A DNA stretch of 60,749 nt, counting the filler, from an uncultured bacterium (GTDB lineage Bacteria; CAYJOG01), in assembly GCA_964371695.1 (NCBI GenBank). It is 8 parts of 8 records of this genome, joined end to end, with 100 filler letters (N's around TTAATTAATTAA, not from the genome) between each part and the next. Parts side by side here need not be neighbours in the genome. Positions count along the whole stretch, not along the records: positions 15,283 to 22,829 come from CAYJOG010000128.1; 7 more parts are not named here. One strand, 5' to 3'. Made by a program: the position numbers and the translations under genes. How positions within the stretch are numbered: the stretch's first letter is position 1; each line of letters starts with the position of its first letter. The notes beneath the pieces are model-generated. The model had not been told where the DNA came from. It did not search any database and saw only the letters and a list, made by a program, of their open reading frames with translations. Shown one piece after another: positions 14,296 to 22,929 of this stretch.

Positions 14296-14545
14296 AAAAA
14301 CCACCTTATTACCCTCTCCCCTTTACGGGGAGAGGGTGGCCGAAGGTCGGGTGAGGGGTTATGTAAAAGTAAAAAACCAAATTTCTTTTTGGATTTTTCG
14401 CCTTTATTTTACCCCTCAACCCAACCCTCTCCCCAGTGGGGGAGAGGGGGTAAAGGCGGCGCTTCTTCATTCCTCGGCAGTTTCGCGCTTCGTGCTCAGG
14501 CAGGCGGGGACGCCTGCCCTACTTTGTCGCGCCGCTGGGTGCGCT
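14296..14545. repeat. Composite REP-like repeat cluster
   Basis: Paired CCCTCTCCCC..GGGGAGAGGG hairpins and a GTAG-type unit that is inverted relative to 38893-38940. Confidence 0.8.
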
Positions 14546-14566
14546 CAGCAGGTGGGAGTCTGGACC

Positions 14567-15182
14567 ATGACAGAAACCGGCGATAAACAATTCATCAATC
14601 CTCCCAAACCCGCCCTGGGTGTGATTGATTCTCTGAACGGCGCGCCGCCCACTTGGGGGCTGGACGACATTTTTGATCTGAAACCCGGCACGCCCGCCGA
14701 ACTGGCGGTGTGGTTGCTGGAGGGGCGCATCGCGGCGGGGTTTGTGCCCGTGGTGGAGGCGCTGGAAATGGGACAGCGGTGGGTGGGGTTGCCCTATGTC
14801 ATTGCCTCGCCGGGGCCGGTGCGCTCGGTGTGCCTGTTCGGTTTTGAAAATCAAGACCCGCTGTCGGCCCGCACGTTGTGGCTGGACGCCAAAAGCCGCA
14901 CCAGCAACGCCCTTGTGCGCTGGTTGCTGCCCGGTGCGGCCCTGCGCCACCACGATGGCAACGGCCCGGTTCTGGAAAATCTGCAAAGCAGCGAGGCGGC
15001 CCTGGTGATGGGAGACGAAGCCCTGCGGCTGGTGCTGGCGGGCCGCAGTCATGTGGACCTCGCCAGCCTGTGGCGCGAACGCACCGGTGAGCCTTTGGTG
15101 TTCGCCCGCCTCATGGTCAACCCGGATCTGATGGATGAAGAAACCCAGCGGGTGTTGTGCCAGCGGGTGGAGGCCAACCTGC
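14567..15182 (+). CDS. mqnA: Chorismate dehydratase (3' truncated)
   Basis: LGVIDSLNGAP, GPVRSV, SRTSNAL, MGDEAL and DLASLWRERTGEPLVFA; directly follows mqnE. Confidence 0.85.
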
Positions 15183-15282
15183 NNNNNNNNNNNNNNNNNN
15201 NNNNNNNNNNNNNNNNNNNNNNNNNNTTAATTAATTAANNNNNNNNNNNNNNNNNNNNNNNNNNNNNNNNNNNNNNNNNNNN

Positions 15283-15522
15283 GCCGGTGCAACTGCCCGC
15301 CGCCGCGGCTTTGGCCAGCGTGATGGTGGCGCCCGAGAGGGGCACCAGCGTGGCGCTGGCTGCGCGACCCGCCACGGTGCCTGCGTTTACAAACAGGCCG
15401 CCGCTGACGGAGCCGGAGGGGATGGGGTTGCGCCGCCCGGTGCCGCAGCCCGCCAAGGTGGCGAGACTGAGAGCACAGGCTGTCAAGGCGGTGAGTCGGA
15501 CGGAAAGAAGTTTCCTGAACAT
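15283..15522 (-). CDS. Lipoprotein, N-terminal fragment
   Basis: MFRKLLSVR... hydrophobic stretch ending in lipobox LAGC; runs into the gap. Confidence 0.65.
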
Positions 15523-15893
15523 GCGGACGGGGTTCCTCCTGGCTGGTTTGAAAACGTTTGCACCGGCAATAGGGCCGCCGAAAAACACACGTCTTCCGTT
15601 GGTGATTGAGCACAAGTTTAACCCAGGTGGTGTTCAATGCAAATGAGCAAACGGGTGAATGACGTGATGGGCGTCACGCGGCCCATGTGCTGCTGGTTCA
15701 CGCTGCCGGGGGCGCGCTGCGCCCCTCTTTAATATCCCAGATCGCTGGCTGTTACCTGTTGCGCAAACACTTGTGGCGCGACCGCCACACCTGTTGCAGC
15801 GCCAAAACGAACGCTTTATCCCCCAAATGGAGCCAACAGCGGTCAAAACCAGCAAAAACCGGCTGCCGCCCTCCTGAAAAACTTATTTCCGGC

Positions 15894-15910
15894 TTGGCAC
15901 ACAGCTTGCT
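15894..15910 (+). promoter_or_regulatory. sigma54 (-24/-12) promoter
   Basis: TTGGCAC-ACAGC-TTGCT matches the TGGCAC-N5-TTGC consensus with exact spacing, in intergenic DNA. Confidence 0.75.
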
Positions 15911-15920
15911 ATCAGGCATA

Positions 15921-15980
15921 GCCGGAGGGATAACCCCACCATACACAGTTAAAAGACGGGCGAAGGCTCGTCTTTTTTTT
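15921..15980 (+). ncRNA. Candidate ~60-nt sigma54-dependent small RNA
   Basis: Lies between the sigma54 promoter and an intrinsic terminator, with no start codon in the interval. Confidence 0.5.
15951..15980 (+). terminator. Intrinsic terminator (may also act on the - strand)
   Basis: AAAAGACGGGC-GAAG-GCTCGTC followed by a T8 run. Confidence 0.8.
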
Positions 15981-15992
15981 GTTTCAAAAACC

Positions 15993-16931
15993 TCATGGCC
16001 TGCCCTTTTCCCGCCACAGAAGAATGGGCCAAAGAATAAACAGGTGACCCACCAAACCTGCCATGAAAATCCATGCCCAATTTGAGGGTACGAGCCCCAC
16101 CCTAAGCTTGTGAATGCCGATAATGAAAATGGCAGGAATTAAAGACACACATTTCAAAAGCAAGTTCAAAAACCAAAACATGATCAGTTTTGCCTTGCTT
16201 GGGTGAATGCTGCCCAAAAGAGGGGGCGGCAGCGGCCCCGCGCCAAAGGGGCGCGGGAGTTCCATGGGTGGGACCTCAGTCGCCTGCCACTCTTTCAGAA
16301 CCTGATGCAGATGCTGTTGCTCCATGTGATTTTTTTTTGCACTACCGCTGCCTTCGCTGGAAAAAAAACAGATTTCCCTTTCGTGGTCTGGTTGCTGCAC
16401 CCGCAGACACACCAAGGGTTTGGAGAAATAATCGGGCATCTTGAAACCCCACCCCACACCCAGCACCTGCTGCTGGTGCAGGGCAAAGGCGTGTCGGTCT
16501 CCTATGAACACCAGCCAGGGGCCAAAAACCTGCAAAAAACCCAGGTCTTCTACTGCCCAACCGTTATACGTTCTGAACTGATTGACCGGGCAAAAACCTA
16601 CAAATTGCCCACCAAAGTTTGCCGGCAGACGATGATTTTGAGCCAGATGGTCCATCAACTCCTGTTTGACCTGTCTGGCCCCTTTGCCCTTGCGCTGGAA
16701 ATGGGACCAAAAAACACCTGCCGGGCCACTCAACAGGGCCAGAGCAACAAGGAGCCAAGGCAAAATGCCGGGCAAAGGGTTGGTATTATTAAAAATAACT
16801 ACCAGCATTGAGAATGCGAGCGACAAGATATCCATCCTGTTTTGGGCGCTGAGATACTGCGTCAGCCTTGCCTTGTTCAGAAAAGGCTCTGTAGGAGAGT
16901 CTTCCAGGACAGGTGGTGGCAAGGGGTCCAT
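15993..16931 (-). CDS. Hypothetical membrane protein (lower GC)
   Basis: 312-aa ORF with about two TM segments at each end and a central soluble region; no recognisable motif. Confidence 0.6.
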   Translation of the reverse strand: MDPLPPPVLEDSPTEPFLNKARLTQYLSAQNRMDILSLAFSMLVVIFNNTNPLPGILPWLLVALALLSGPAGVFWSHFQRKGKGARQVKQELMDHLAQNHRLPANFGGQFVGFCPVNQFRTYNGWAVEDLGFLQVFGPWLVFIGDRHAFALHQQQVLGVGWGFKMPDYFSKPLVCLRVQQPDHEREICFFSSEGSGSAKKNHMEQQHLHQVLKEWQATEVPPMELPRPFGAGPLPPPLLGSIHPSKAKLIMFWFLNLLLKCVSLIPAIFIIGIHKLRVGLVPSNWAWIFMAGLVGHLFILWPILLWREKGRP

Positions 16932-16967
16932 GGTGTTCAGACTAGCAGGGTGTTTATCAACACCCCG

Positions 16968-18083
16968 CTAATCACGCCAGAACAAACATTCCGAAACAGC
17001 CTGCACCAGCCGCTGGTTGTCTGCCGGGAACACATGGCCGATGTGGCCAATGCGGAAGGTGTCGGCCTGGCTCACCTTGCCCGGATAAATCACGAAGCCT
17101 TTTTCTTTGAGCAGCAGGTAAAAGCGTTTGAACGTGAAATCCGGTGCGTCGGGGTAAAGAAACGTGGTGATGATGGGGGACTGATATTCGTCGGGCAGCA
17201 GGGTTTTGAAGCCCAGCCCCCGCAGGCCATCCACCACCGTGCGGTGATTTTGCCGGTAACGGGCGGCGCGGGCCGCCACGCCGCCTTCTTCGTCCAGCTC
17301 CAGCAGGGCCTGGGCAAAGGCCCGCACCACGTGGGTGGGTGAGGTGTAACGCCATTTGCCGCCCTGGGTTTCCATGGTGTGCCACTGATCGTAGAGGTCC
17401 AGACACAACGAGGCCGACCGGCCCTTCAGTTTTTCCATCTGTTCGCGCTGCGCCAGCACAAAAGCAAAACCCGGCACTCCTTGAATGCACTTGTTGGCGC
17501 TGGAAATCAGAAAATCCGCCCCCACTTCCGCCTGATCCATTTCGATGCCCGCGAAGCTGGACATGGCGTCCAGAATGAACAGCCGCCCATGGCGTTTGAC
17601 GATTTCGCCCACTTTGTCCACCGGGTTGAGCAGGCCCGTGGTGGTTTCGCAGTGAATCATGGCCACGTGGGTGATGGCGGGGTCCGCCGCCAGGGTTTCG
17701 TCCAGACGGGTCAGGTCAGGCGGCTGGGTTTCGGGGGATTCCAGCACCACCAGCTTTTTGCACAGCCGCCGGGCCATCTCGGCCAGACGCGCGCCATAGG
17801 CCCCGTTGCTCAGCGCCAGCAGTTTGTCGTCTGGCCCGATGGCGCAATGGATAGTGGCCTCGACGGCAAAACTGCCGCTGCCCTGCAACAACACGGCGGT
17901 GTAACCAGCCTGCCCGCTGGCCAGGGCCGCCAGACGCGCACGGATGTCCTGCACGATGGCGTTGTAGTCGTCGTCCCAGGTACACCAGTCGCGCAGCAGG
18001 GCGGCGCGCACGCCTTTGCTGGTGCTGAGGGGGCCGGGGGTGAGCAACAGATAGGGGTTTTCGGGAATGTGCGAGAGGTCCAT
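16968..18083 (-). CDS. phnW: 2-aminoethylphosphonate-pyruvate transaminase
   Basis: LLLTPGPLST, DWCTWD, HCETTTG, DAMSSF, SSANKCIQGVPG, WRYTSPTH and GFVIYPGK. Confidence 0.95.
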   Translation of the reverse strand: MDLSHIPENPYLLLTPGPLSTSKGVRAALLRDWCTWDDDYNAIVQDIRARLAALASGQAGYTAVLLQGSGSFAVEATIHCAIGPDDKLLALSNGAYGARLAEMARRLCKKLVVLESPETQPPDLTRLDETLAADPAITHVAMIHCETTTGLLNPVDKVGEIVKRHGRLFILDAMSSFAGIEMDQAEVGADFLISSANKCIQGVPGFAFVLAQREQMEKLKGRSASLCLDLYDQWHTMETQGGKWRYTSPTHVVRAFAQALLELDEEGGVAARAARYRQNHRTVVDGLRGLGFKTLLPDEYQSPIITTFLYPDAPDFTFKRFYLLLKEKGFVIYPGKVSQADTFRIGHIGHVFPADNQRLVQAVSECLFWRD

Positions 18084-18095
18084 GGCGGGTTTAGT

Positions 18096-18764
18096 TTAGG
18101 CCGTGATTTCATCCACGCTGCCAATCACCACGTGGGCCCCCGCCGCCCGCAGTGTGGCCGCGTCATCCGCGCCGGAAAGCACCCCCGCCACCAGACCACA
18201 ACCGGCGTTCACGCCTTCTTCCATGTCCCGCGCCGTGTCCCCCGTCTTGGCCACGCGCCGCACGTCCATCAGTCCCAGTTGTTTCATCAGGGCATGGATC
18301 ATGTAAGGAAAAGGCCGCCCCGCGCCCACGTCTTCGCTCACGATGAGGGCGTTTATGTGGGGGCCAAAACCGTTCTGGTCCACCAGGGCCTGTGCCAGCG
18401 GGCGGGGATAACCCGTGTCCAGCGCCACCTTCACACCGGCGGCCCGCAGGCGGTCAAAACACGCCACTGCGCCGGGGATGGGTTTCACAGGAGAAGCGGG
18501 GCCGAAATAGGCGTCGTTCAGTTCCGACTGAAACCGGCCATAGACCCGCGCCACTTCCGCCTCTGGCGCTTTGCCCCCTTGCAGAAAATGCCGCACCACC
18601 TCCACCTTGTTGGCCCCGTGCCAGTGGTTGAAATCTTCTGCGCTGTAGCTGGCCCCCTCGTGGCGCAGAATGCGGTCCAGCGTTTGATACACCACGCCGC
18701 CTTCGTCCACCACGGTGCCCGCCATGTCAAACACAACCAGATCAATGTTTTCCAGTTTCAGCAT
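18096..18764 (-). CDS. HAD-family phosphonatase-like hydrolase
   Basis: FDMAGTVVD motif I; LDTGY, GRPFPYMI and KTGDTARDM; co-oriented with phnW. Confidence 0.8.
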   Translation of the reverse strand: MLKLENIDLVVFDMAGTVVDEGGVVYQTLDRILRHEGASYSAEDFNHWHGANKVEVVRHFLQGGKAPEAEVARVYGRFQSELNDAYFGPASPVKPIPGAVACFDRLRAAGVKVALDTGYPRPLAQALVDQNGFGPHINALIVSEDVGAGRPFPYMIHALMKQLGLMDVRRVAKTGDTARDMEEGVNAGCGLVAGVLSGADDAATLRAAGAHVVIGSVDEITA

Positions 18765-18854
18765 GAGGGCAGTCTAACCACACCGGGCCAGATGCTTTCC
18801 CGGCTGGCTTTGTCTTCACGAAAAAGCAACAATAGGCGCGCACCCTTGGACACC

Positions 18855-19925
18855 ATGCAAACGGACCCCCTCTCCCCCTCCCGCTGGTCGGCGCGCCGCG
18901 CGCTCGCCGCCTGCGCCCTTGGCCTGGGCCTGCCCCTGCTGGCGGCTGGTTGCAGCGGCGGCAAACAGGGCGGCCAGGAGCTTCTGGTTTACACCGCTTA
19001 TGAAGACGACCAGTACCCGGCGTTTCTTGAGGACTTCCAGAAACAGCACCCGGAAATCACGGTGACCGTGCAGCGGGATTCCACCGGCGTGATCATGGCC
19101 AAGGTGCTGGCCGAAAAAGAAAACCCCCGCGCCGACGTGTTGTGGGGCATTGCGCTCACAGAAATGCTCACCGCCAAGCGCGAGGGCATCCTGTCTCCTT
19201 ATGCCCCCAAGGGGCTGGACAAACTGGACCCCCGCTTTCGCGACAAAACGAACCCACCGCTGTGGACGGGCAACGACGCCTTCATGACGGCCTTTTGTGT
19301 GAACACCATCGAGGTCAAAAACAAAAACCTGCCCATTCCGAAGTCCTATGCCGACTTGGCGGACCCAAGACTGGCGGGTCAGGTGGTCAGCCCCAACCCG
19401 GCGTCGTCGGGCACGGGCTTCATGACGGTGTCGGGTATTTTGCAGACCCTGGGCGAAGACAAAGGTTGGGCCGTGCTGGACGGTCTGCACAAAAACACCG
19501 CCCAATACGTTCACAGCGGCTCGCAGCCCTGCAAGATGGCGGGGGCGGGGGAATATGCCGTGGGTGTGTCGTTTGATTACCGGGGCTTCAAACAAAAAGC
19601 CGAGGGCCAGCCCATTGAAGTCATCCTGCCCGAAGAGGGCAGCGGCTGGGACGTGGAAGCCAACGGCCTTGTCAAAAAACCAAAAATCAACCCCACCGCC
19701 AAAACCTTTCTGGACTGGGCCATCAACGAGAGCGCCATGAAGCTCTATGGCGAAAACGCCGCCGTGCTGGGCCTGAAGGGCGCGGCCAAAGCGCCGGAAG
19801 GGTATCCCGCAGACCCGGCGGCGCAACTGGGCAAAAACGATTTTGACTGGGCCGCCGAAAACCGCCCCCGCCTGCTGGAGGAATGGACCAAACGCTACGA
19901 CGGCAAAAGCGCCGCCAAGGAATAA
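18855..19925 (+). CDS. 2-AEP ABC transporter substrate-binding lipoprotein
   Basis: Lipobox LAAGC; VYTA, RDSTG, PNPASSGTGF and YVHSGSQPC; divergent from the phnW operon. Confidence 0.88.
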   Translation: MQTDPLSPSRWSARRALAACALGLGLPLLAAGCSGGKQGGQELLVYTAYEDDQYPAFLEDFQKQHPEITVTVQRDSTGVIMAKVLAEKENPRADVLWGIALTEMLTAKREGILSPYAPKGLDKLDPRFRDKTNPPLWTGNDAFMTAFCVNTIEVKNKNLPIPKSYADLADPRLAGQVVSPNPASSGTGFMTVSGILQTLGEDKGWAVLDGLHKNTAQYVHSGSQPCKMAGAGEYAVGVSFDYRGFKQKAEGQPIEVILPEEGSGWDVEANGLVKKPKINPTAKTFLDWAINESAMKLYGENAAVLGLKGAAKAPEGYPADPAAQLGKNDFDWAAENRPRLLEEWTKRYDGKSAAKE

Positions 19926-19927
19926 CC

Positions 19928-20989
19928 ATGGCCGCACCCTGTCTGGACCTGAAAGGCATCGAAAAAAACTTTGGCGCTTTTCAGGCGCTCAGGGACATTC
20001 ACCTCACGGTGGAGCAGGGTGAGTTTTTGTGCCTGCTGGGGCCTTCGGGTTGCGGCAAAACCACGCTGCTGCGCATTATTTCGGGCCTGGAGCAGCCCAC
20101 CGCCGGTGTGCTGGCGCATCAGGGGCGCGACATCACCCGCCTGCCGCCCCCCGCCAGAGGCTTTGGCATCGTGTTCCAGTCCTACGCGCTTTTCCCCAAC
20201 CTCACGGCCATCCAGAACGTGGCCTATGGCCTGTATGTCAAACCCGGCTCGAAAGAACAAAAACGCGAGCGCGCCCTGGCCTGTCTGCGGCTGGTGGGTC
20301 TGGAACACGCGGCGGACAAACACCCGGCCCAGCTTTCCGGCGGTCAGCAGCAGCGGGTGGCCCTGGCCCGCGCCCTGGCGCCGGAGCCTGCCCTGCTGCT
20401 GTTGGATGAGCCTCTGAGCGCACTCGACGCCAAGGTGCGCCAGTCGCTGCGCGAACAGTTGCGCCACCTGCAAAAAAGCCTGGGCGTGACCACCGTGATG
20501 GTGACCCACGATCAGGAGGAAGCCCTGGGGCTTTCGGACCGCGTCGCCGTGATGGACCACGGTGTGCTGGTGCAGGTGGACACCCCCACGGCGCTTTATG
20601 ACGCCCCCAAAAATCTGTTTGTGGCCGATTTTGTGGGGGCCATGAACTTTTTGAAGGCCACCAGCAACGGCGGGGGCCATTACACCCTGGGCACAGAAAA
20701 TCTTCAGGCTGCCAGTGACCTGCCCAGCGGTCAGGCCGTCACGCTGGCCATCCGCCCCCAATTGGTGCAACTGGGCGCGCCGACGGGGCCAAACACCCTG
20801 AGCGCCACCGTGGCCGACGCGGAATATCGGGGCAGCGGCTGGCGGGTGCGACTGGTGCTGGGGCAGGGGCAATCGCTGGCCATCGACATCGGCGAAACCC
20901 GCACCAGCCCCGAACTGCATCAGGAAGGGGCCACCGTGAAAATCACACTGCCCCCCGAAGACCTGCGGGTGTTCGCCGAAACACCATGA
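19928..20989 (+). CDS. ABC transporter ATP-binding subunit
   Basis: GPSGCGKTT, LSGGQQQRVALARAL and LLLDEP motifs; TOBE-like tail. Confidence 0.95.
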   Translation: MAAPCLDLKGIEKNFGAFQALRDIHLTVEQGEFLCLLGPSGCGKTTLLRIISGLEQPTAGVLAHQGRDITRLPPPARGFGIVFQSYALFPNLTAIQNVAYGLYVKPGSKEQKRERALACLRLVGLEHAADKHPAQLSGGQQQRVALARALAPEPALLLLDEPLSALDAKVRQSLREQLRHLQKSLGVTTVMVTHDQEEALGLSDRVAVMDHGVLVQVDTPTALYDAPKNLFVADFVGAMNFLKATSNGGGHYTLGTENLQAASDLPSGQAVTLAIRPQLVQLGAPTGPNTLSATVADAEYRGSGWRVRLVLGQGQSLAIDIGETRTSPELHQEGATVKITLPPEDLRVFAETP

Positions 20990-22699
20990 GCCCCGCTGTG
21001 CGCAAACTCCCCGGCAACCAAAGCGCCCTGGTGCGCGCCGGTCTGCTGGTGGTGGTTTTTGCCCTGCTGCTGGTGATGGTGCTGCTGCCGCTGTGGCAGG
21101 TGGTGGTCAAAAGCACACAGGGCCTGGACGGCCAGTTTGTGGGGTTGTCGAACTTCGCCGCCTATGCCCGCTCACCGGCGCTGTTCGCCTCGCTTTTCAA
21201 CAGCCTGTGGCTCTCTGCGGTTTCTGCTGTGCTGGCGGTGGGCCTGGGGTTTGTGTATGCCTATGCGCTCACCCGCGCCCGGCTGCCCGCACCGGGTTTC
21301 TGGCGGGGCGTGGCCATGGCCCCGCTGTTTGGCCCCACGCTCTTGCACGGCATTTGTCTGGTGGCGCTGTTTGGCAACCAGGGCGTGGCCACCCGCGCCG
21401 GACTCACCCTGCCGCTCTATGGCCCTCTGGGCATTGTGCTGGTGGAGTTCCTCTACACCTTTCCCCAGGCGGTGCTGCTCATTTCCACGGCCCTGCGCCT
21501 CACCGACGGACGCCTTTATGAAGCCAGCGGCATGTTGGGGGCGGGGCCTTGGCGGCAGTTTGTCACGGTGACGCTGCCCGGTGTGCGTTATGGCCTGATG
21601 GGCGCGGGCGTGGTGTGTTTCACACTGGCCTTCACCGACTTTGGCGGCCCCAAGGTGGTGGGGGGCAACACCCCGGTGCTGGCCACGGAAATCTACAAAC
21701 AGGTCATTGGCCAACAGAACTTCAACATGGGGGCCACGGTGAGCGTGGTGCTGCTTTTGCCCGCCCTGGGGGCGTTTTTTCTGGATCAATGGGCGCAGAA
21801 AAAACAGTCCGCCGCCATGACCCCCGGCGCGGTGGCCCTGGCTCCCAAACCCCACAAGCTGCGCGACGGTCTGCTGCTGCTGTTCTGCGGGCTGGTGGCG
21901 TTGTCTCTGCTGGGTGTGCTGCTGGCGGGGCTGCTGGTGTCGCTGGCCAAAAGCTGGCCCTACGATCTTTCCCCCACGCTCAGGCACTACACCTTTCAGG
22001 NNNNNNNNNNCCTTTCAGGGGCAGTCCGGCGGTTACAACGCATTTTTCAACAGCATCCGCATGTCAGCCCTCACAGCAGTGGCGGGCACGATCCTTGTTT
22101 TTGGCGGGGCCTATCTCATCGAAAAAGGTCGGGGATTTGGCCTTCTCAAAAAACTCGCCTATGGCGTGGGGCTGATTCCCCTGGCGCTGCCGGGTCTGGT
22201 GCTGGGGCTGGCCTACATCCTGTTTTTCAACAGCCAGAAACTGCCGCTGCCGGGTTTGTCGTTTTTGCCCAATCCCTTTACGGGGCTTTATGGCGGCATG
22301 GCGCTGCTGGTGCTGTGCAACATCGCCCACTTTTACACCGTGGCGTTTTTCACCTGCACCACGGCCCTCAAACAACTGGACAACGCCTATGAGGCGGCGG
22401 CGGAATCATTGGGGGTGCCGTTCTGGGTCACCTTCTGGCGGGTGAGTCTGCCGCTGTCGTGGCCCGCTCTGGTGGAGACCGCGCTCTATTTTTTCACCAG
22501 CGCGCTCACCACGGTGTCGGCGGTGATTTTCCTGGTGAGTCCGGCCCTGGTGCTGGCCTCGGTGAGCGTGGTGAAGATGGAAGACGCGGGCGACCGACAG
22601 GCCGCCGCCGCCATGTGCCTGCTCATCACGCTGGTCAACGCCGTGGTGCGCCTGCTGAGCAGCCTGTTCTCGCGCAAACGCCGCACCGCCGGGGCGTAA
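20986..22699 (+). CDS. ABC transporter permease (two fused TM modules; spans the N gap at 22001-22010)
   Basis: Two EAA loops (LYEASGMLGA, YEAAAESLGV). CCTTTCAGG is duplicated on both sides of the gap, and merging the copies restores one frame. Confidence 0.9.
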
Positions 22700-22929
22700 A
22701 GACAGGAAGTCGGCGGCTGGGTGTCGGCACAAAGTCAGCGGTTACTACAGGCGTCTTGTCCATCGCTGCTCACTTTAGGGGTTGGATTTCACATGGTCTT
22801 GGCGGGAGGGACATCTTTTGCCCTCTCCCNNNNNNNNNNNNNNNNNNNNNNNNNNNNNNNNNNNNNNNNNNNNTTAATTAATTAANNNNNNNNNNNNNNN
22901 NNNNNNNNNNNNNNNNNNNNNNNNNNNNN

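Follow-up and report, generated by a model that had tools for sequence, protein, structure and literature searches.

A likely sigma-54-dependent small RNA of an uncatalogued family in an uncultured bacterium

Why would a sigma-54 promoter motif point into an intergenic gap that holds no gene in its own orientation? The question is raised by contig C128 (CAYJOG010000128.1) of an uncultured bacterium whose genome (3.43 Mb, 61% GC, 83% complete) was the only one returned by a search of its phylum. The window analysed here (60,749 nt) consists of separate contigs strung together via N runs, the first base of C128 being position 15283; positions below are those of the window unless another contig is named. 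Sigma-54-dependent small RNAs have been characterised in a few model lineages, and a preliminary description of the locus had proposed a free-standing one of about 60 nt. This proposal is supported by the presence of rpoN and sigma-54 activators, the spacing of the motif, the orientation of the terminator and a relative in which the locus aligns; although still a prediction, the interval probably encodes a genuine small RNA under sigma-54 control that belongs to no catalogued family. RpoB best-segment identities were 39–58% and no close named relative was found (80 of 411 loci considered).

The promoter motif and the terminator behind it

Both flanking genes lie on the minus strand, as had been described. 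The divergent neighbour (15283–15522, start at 15522) is the beginning of a lipoprotein-like gene, according to our reading of its LAGC motif, and is truncated by the contig end; the convergent one (16931–15993) is an ORF downstream of phnW that encodes a 312-aa protein of unknown family. Neither has a Pfam match. In the gap between them, the plus strand carries TTGGCAC-ACAGC-TTGCT at 15894–15910 (GG at 15896–97, GC at 15908–09), an exact −24/−12 match precisely where the preliminary description had placed it; from the usual geometry of sigma-54 promoters, transcription would start at about 15921. Within the window, the motif taken alone is at chance level (1 match against 0.47 expected; 39 of 100 shuffles contain one), and its weight comes from a genome-wide spacing test and from its position relative to the terminator. 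Genome-wide, the strict pattern TTGGCA-N6-TTGC[AT] matches seven sites including this one, of which six are intergenic and five lie at most 250 nt before a same-strand gene; six decoy spacers combined gave 14 sites, six of them intergenic and one ahead of a gene. Strict motifs with the correct spacer act like promoters in this genome, and the motif at 15894–15910 is the sole intergenic one without a same-strand gene behind it. Note that these counts depend on a purpose-built gene caller (2949 genes, 84% coding, 16% of the genome intergenic), which overlooked the 312-aa neighbour.

The motif is followed on the same strand by the strong hairpin and T8 that the preliminary description had reported, i.e. 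an intrinsic terminator at 15955–15980, with a 7-bp stem (GACGGGC/GCTCGTC) and a GAAG loop at 15955–15972 and the T run at 15973–15980; the stem can be lengthened via AAAA/TTTT pairs (15951–15976). Runs of at least eight T are found in 45 of the 799 predicted terminators of the genome. There is no plus-strand gene upstream on the contig, and a plus-strand transcript must therefore begin inside the gap. Among the 799 predicted intergenic terminators, four calls at three loci have TGGCA-N6-TTGC[AT] within the 200 nt upstream; each of four decoy spacers gave zero. One of the three loci, on contig C9, sits inside a genome-wide repeat, so that promoter and terminator can be paired without an RNA gene; this pair was rejected as a small RNA because it belongs to the repeat, which is about 260 bp long. 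The repeat itself (C9 6715–7100 and many other contigs; dozens of copies, 85–97% identical) adjoins a GGGA-loop hairpin repeat with 91 pattern matches.

The hairpin also faces the convergent transcript, and an unlikely reading of the locus dispenses with a plus-strand transcript altogether: the hairpin would end the phnX–phnW–312-aa mRNA, whose stop codon is separated by 12 nt from the T8 run that flanks the stem, and the motif would be one of the chance matches that two fifths or so of the shuffled windows contain. The two strands of the hairpin are far from equivalent, however. The terminator scan reports it on the plus strand only, and the stem, −10.8 kcal/mol on that strand, drops to −5.6 kcal/mol on the minus strand because a G-U pair turns into an A-C mismatch; it is followed by eight T on the plus strand and only by TTTTAACT (T at five of eight positions) on the minus strand. 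As a reference, we took genes in tandem layout that are followed by a hairpin (266 in all), and retained the 29 cases with at least six T on one side: none of these 29 terminators shows the reversed pattern (at least seven T antisense, at most five sense), although four of them appear reversed if it is enough for the antisense side to have three or more T in excess. The hairpin is thus built for plus-strand termination, which, together with the promoter-like behaviour of right-spacer strict motifs genome-wide, speaks against the convergent reading; it may also be a weak stop for the convergent mRNA, given the nearby stop codon. A real sigma-54 transcription unit is, in our estimation, highly probable.

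The predicted RNA and its conservation

The predicted RNA (15921–15980, plus strand) starts with GCCGGAGGGATAACCCCACCATACACAGTT at 15921 and has 34 non-coding bases before the hairpin. Its predicted layout comprises (i) a weak 5' hairpin at 15924–15940, (ii) an A/C-rich unpaired stretch at about 15941–15951 and (iii) the terminator. A 61-nt RNA folds with −22.9 kcal/mol (z −4.3; 1 of 200 shuffles equally good), a signal that is due to the terminator, since z is only −1.6 for the first 35 nt folded by themselves. As had been noted, the interval lacks a start codon: there is no ATG, GTG or TTG within 15921–15972. Two ORFs overlap the RNA (15687–16085, plus strand; 15752–16135, minus strand) and were rejected as genes: in a hexamer model built from the genome's own sequence, they have the scores of non-coding DNA (−0.78 and −0.84 per codon, compared to +0.13 for the 1st percentile of called genes).

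Among the sequencing runs listed as containing part of the region, six are DNA runs, four of which were examined, and none is an RNA run, which speaks neither for nor against transcription. Two of them (X1 and X4) hold near-exact matches and may be the source of the genome, so that they support the assembly only. A third one (X6), from groundwater and with a different study code, contains a relative about 90% identical, represented by a contig (3396 nt, depth 8.98) that differs from 15283–15655 at 33 of 373 nt. The depth bins of X6 translate into 149, 119 and 28 covered bases: the 149 are exactly 15507–15655, the remaining ~147 are consistent with 15836–15982, and none are left for 15656–15835. 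The relative thus aligns across promoter, RNA and terminator, over a span deduced from the depth bins. For 15836–15982, the listing covers indels and shows two single-base ones of the same depth, namely the loss of base 15917, between −12 and +1, and the gain of an A that follows 15931 and falls within the predicted loop of the 5' hairpin; because the frame is regained after 14 nt, these indels alone do not exclude the overlapping ORFs. It is conceivable that the X6 contig just stops close to 15982; the 312-aa gene is aligned in X6 over 171 nt only (78%). Note that other intergenic stretches (15523–15655 and the gap between phnX and the ABC transporter) align in X6 at the same distance, and alignment alone is therefore no proof of selection.

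Conservation of the promoter–RNA–terminator block, which the preliminary description had put forward as a check, is seen as alignment of the block in that one relative, and further homologues were not found. A search of 40 other genomes with 15700–16000 returned short, same-domain matches only (best E 0.011). In metagenomes, a pattern combining the promoter with CATACACAG matched 103 stretches, and none of the 98 loci inspected by eye displayed a hairpin and T run within the next 50 nt or any likeness to the RNA. The promoter–RNA pattern had no match in viral contigs, and distant blastn gave none in plasmids and phages. Finally, Rfam 15 has no family at gathering threshold in 14500–17500 (E up to 10), the only two matches being unrelated chance ones far under the cut-offs (E 6–7, 14–15 bits), in keeping with the failure of the preliminary description to recognise the family.

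Candidate activator site and regulatory machinery

Enhancer sites had been assigned to a near-dyad, TGTTGCGCAAACA, and to a direct repeat of ACCTGTTGC. Both elements are present within 15754–15797 (TGTTGCGCAAACA at 15758–15770, ACCTGTTGC at 15754 and 15789) and are weak taken alone, some exact 9-mer repeat being found in 417 of 1585 intergenic 220-nt windows, i.e. at chance level. A better candidate, overlooked at the time, lies between them: TGTGGCG-CGAC-CGCCACA (15772–15789), a perfect 7-bp dyad of the form TGT-N12-ACA whose centre is some 140 bp before the putative start. Of the 1585 windows, only 2 contain a perfect 7-bp dyad led by TGT. Among the Desulfovibrio activator motifs described in PMC4641369, TGT/ACA half-sites separated by 9, 11 or 12 bp are common. 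The dyad is a candidate enhancer-binding-protein site, and could equally be a hairpin or an operator of the divergent gene. The stretch that holds it is unaligned in the groundwater relative at 80%, and comparing ten sigma-54 upstream regions by eye revealed no evident common motif.

The genome possesses the machinery that such an RNA would require: rpoN, hfq and csrA, whose presence the preliminary description had left to be checked, all pass NCBIfam cut-offs (TIGR02395 for rpoN), as does fliA (TIGR02479). The sigma-54 activator domain is found at nine loci (E < 1e-32), most of them with receiver domains by NCBIfam matches; none of the nine scores above the threshold for any named activator among the families listed, and none is a neighbour of the RNA on its contig. 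The other strict sigma-54 sites precede fliA, a gene for a DUF3391-like small protein (contig C23) that is divergent from flgM, a YjfB-like gene, a gene for an outer-membrane-type protein and one for a large protein with an exported-looking N-terminus. Because of the fliA, YjfB-like, outer-membrane-type and exported-protein genes, we infer that the RNA most probably operates in the control of motility or of the cell surface. The site ahead of fliA (C636:1524, minus strand) lies 49 nt upstream of the gene, which suggests that sigma-54 stands above sigma-28 in the flagellar hierarchy of this lineage.

Another candidate for a small RNA transcribed by sigma-54, or else a leader, was noticed on contig C106 (minus strand, ~5690–5566) upstream of the YjfB-like gene (58 aa). 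It has the strict promoter motif TTGGCAC-N5-TTGCT, bases after the −12 element that resemble those downstream of the motif at 15894–15910, a length of ~95 nt, a folding energy of −32.8 kcal/mol, a CCUCC anti-SD-like stretch and a final hairpin with T7; Rfam contains no match to it.

The Hfq gene (contig C113, 6607–6879; closest PDB entry, 6gwk) encodes a rim of sequence RAQK, with one arginine, the aligned solved structures having RRER. According to PMC10628458, fewer rim arginines result in weaker annealing, and by analogy this Hfq may anneal more weakly. The csrA gene directly follows a FliW-like gene and precedes flagellin-like genes; the flagellin-like region on contig C181 (2937–5407) displays an apparent tandem duplication, its translation containing stretches that are identical, which may be an artefact of assembly.

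Possible functions and known counterparts

The features above can be assembled into a mechanism. An enhancer-binding protein of the response-regulator type would bind the dyad at 15772–15789 and open the promoter; transcription would start near 15921 and stop at 15980, in the U tail; Hfq would be loaded with the RNA via the hairpin and the eight U; and the exposed A/C-rich stretch would pair with G/U-rich sites in mRNAs, altering their translation or stability. In E. coli, small RNAs bind Hfq via a hairpin followed by a long U tail (PMC4509938), and this feature is present here in the T8 at 15973–15980; before the hairpin, the only U-rich stretch is the UU at 15949–50. That the RNA is a functional regulator is probable, and pairing as its mode of action is an even bet. 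We would give the same balanced weight to the complete proposal, namely a stand-alone RNA gene of about 60 nt, transcribed by sigma-54, whose product acts by base-pairing, probably aided by Hfq.

The A/C-rich seed suggested by the preliminary description is indeed predicted to be single-stranded, but no target rises above shuffled controls. Target prediction from a single genome is weak. Accessible duplexes with the start regions of 2532 genes reached −9.1 kcal/mol at best (5 of 6 seed shuffles equal or better), perfect complementarity to genes extended over 10 nt at most (longer in 25 of 30 shuffles), and no flagellar mRNA was recognised among the top 25 predicted targets. A looser duplex scan of 2615 start regions, 250 of which were rescored, gave long gapped hybrids without a control and was set aside. 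The GGGA-loop repeats (25 of 91 sampled, 8 compared with shuffles) were rejected as partners of the seed too, the net energy being unfavourable (+1.9) and 6 of 60 shuffles as good. A look-alike of the RNA on contig C200 (21 of 23 bases, E 1.2) is antisense to coding sequence, some 60 nt inside the gene for a large exported protein; the RNA could conceivably target it, but matches of 10 nt are at chance level. A presumed resemblance of the RNA to the tracrRNA of type II CRISPR systems was also considered and rejected, no cas1 or cas9 match being found in the 83%-complete genome.

The outcome of the target searches is what one would expect if the promoter were orphaned or incidental, having lost its gene or existing without a regulatory purpose, and fired into the terminator to yield a functionless short RNA. 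This reading also accommodates the atypical codon use of the 312-aa neighbour (−0.2 per codon for the window copy), which fits a recent rearrangement here, as well as the unaligned enhancer region in X6. It sits poorly with the alignment of the RNA body in the same relative, where its indel is confined to a predicted loop, and with a T run that is unusually long and oriented for the plus-strand transcript; we regard it as improbable.

Rather than contacting mRNAs, the A/C-rich stretch might mimic an mRNA site and trap a G/U-rich small RNA, as AgvB does with GcvB. In size and layout, the RNA is close to the anti-sRNAs of the AgvB class from EHEC prophages, which are 51–60 nt long with a C/A-rich single-stranded stretch (CACAACA in AgvB) and a 3' terminator; these, however, are prophage-encoded and have GcvB as partner, and no sigma-54 link is reported for them in the excerpted text (PMC4104026). 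CACAACA itself is absent from the RNA, and no partner was found upstream of 798 predicted terminators: the best helix (−16.9; 3 of 25 shuffles equal or better) is located antisense to a coding sequence, once the self-match on the opposite strand is excluded. A sponge of this kind is thus quite doubtful. The same low standing applies to a broader scheme, in which the sigma-54 motility/surface regulon of this lineage would be wired via two uncatalogued small RNAs, the 60-nt one acting as an anti-sRNA or translational regulator and the ~95-nt one of C106, with an Hfq that has a single rim arginine; if true, it would reveal that a deep and unstudied bacterial branch possesses a layer of RNA sponges driven by sigma-54.

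Finally, sequestration of CsrA by the two GGA motifs, as the preliminary description had envisaged, is very improbable in spite of the csrA gene and of an ANGGA context for one motif, since the only two GGAs (15924 and 15928) start 4 nt apart, whereas a CsrA dimer bridges single-stranded GGAs 10–63 nt apart (PMC3856055), the second GGA is partly in a predicted stem, Rfam gives no CsrB, RsmY or RsmZ match at E up to 10, and the location of csrA between FliW-like and flagellin-like genes is the arrangement in which, according to PMC3856055 and PMC4894983, the FliW protein rather than small RNAs antagonises CsrA.

Qrr of Vibrio, GlmY, CrcZ and NrsZ are transcribed with sigma-54 and an enhancer-binding protein, which is the preferred reading for the RNA described here. 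All four are longer than ~60 nt. Like the present RNA, Pxr of Myxococcus xanthus is stand-alone and intergenic, with a predicted sigma-54 promoter and an upstream enhancer site, but it is 108 nt long, has three stem-loops and lies downstream of its activator gene nla19 (PMC5568312); the RNA of C128 is about 60 nt long and has neither an activator-gene neighbour on its contig nor an Rfam match. In Desulfovibrio vulgaris, non-coding RNAs likewise belong to sigma-54 regulons and TGT/ACA half-sites are found 12 bp apart, whereas two of the listed non-coding RNAs lie directly downstream of their own activator gene (PMC4641369). FlmE (CJnc230) of Campylobacter jejuni is RpoN-dependent, with RpoN in the flagellar hierarchy, a situation paralleled here by the strict sigma-54 site ahead of fliA; it is, however, processed from the flgE mRNA and represses flgM (PMC11187230), unlike an RNA with its own predicted promoter. 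Altogether, the RNA may be likened to Pxr, the Desulfovibrio non-coding RNAs and Qrr in the way it is made, and to the AgvB class in size and make-up. We found no paper in the open full-text library searched on a small regulatory RNA with a sigma-54 promoter in uncultured candidate phyla, the examples there coming from model organisms only. If true, the prediction would extend the design that combines sigma-54, Hfq and a small RNA to a deep bacterial branch, and 60 nt would represent a near-minimal module, a seed plus a terminator, that is easily tested in a heterologous host; it alters no principle and, without a target, answers no open question so far.

The surroundings of the RNA call for some remarks. 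The stretch 15704–15753 resembles C484 559–608 (50 nt, 78% alike, E 7e-4), and both lie upstream of similar lipoprotein-like genes; this likeness was rejected as part of the RNA unit, since it matches a hairpin-repeat family and opens with a GC hairpin having further copies. The look-alikes of the 312-aa protein in the Atlas are unnamed hypothetical proteins, most often from Armatimonadota, and the protein is membrane-like by eye. A paralogue 48% identical to it is encoded on contig C44 (5168–6100), where no such promoter–RNA unit was found. The 312-aa gene follows phosphonate genes of the phnX/phnW type, which belong to a cluster for aminoethylphosphonate use (16968–22700) with a phnW-type transaminase and a phnX-like hydrolase, divergent from an ABC transporter.
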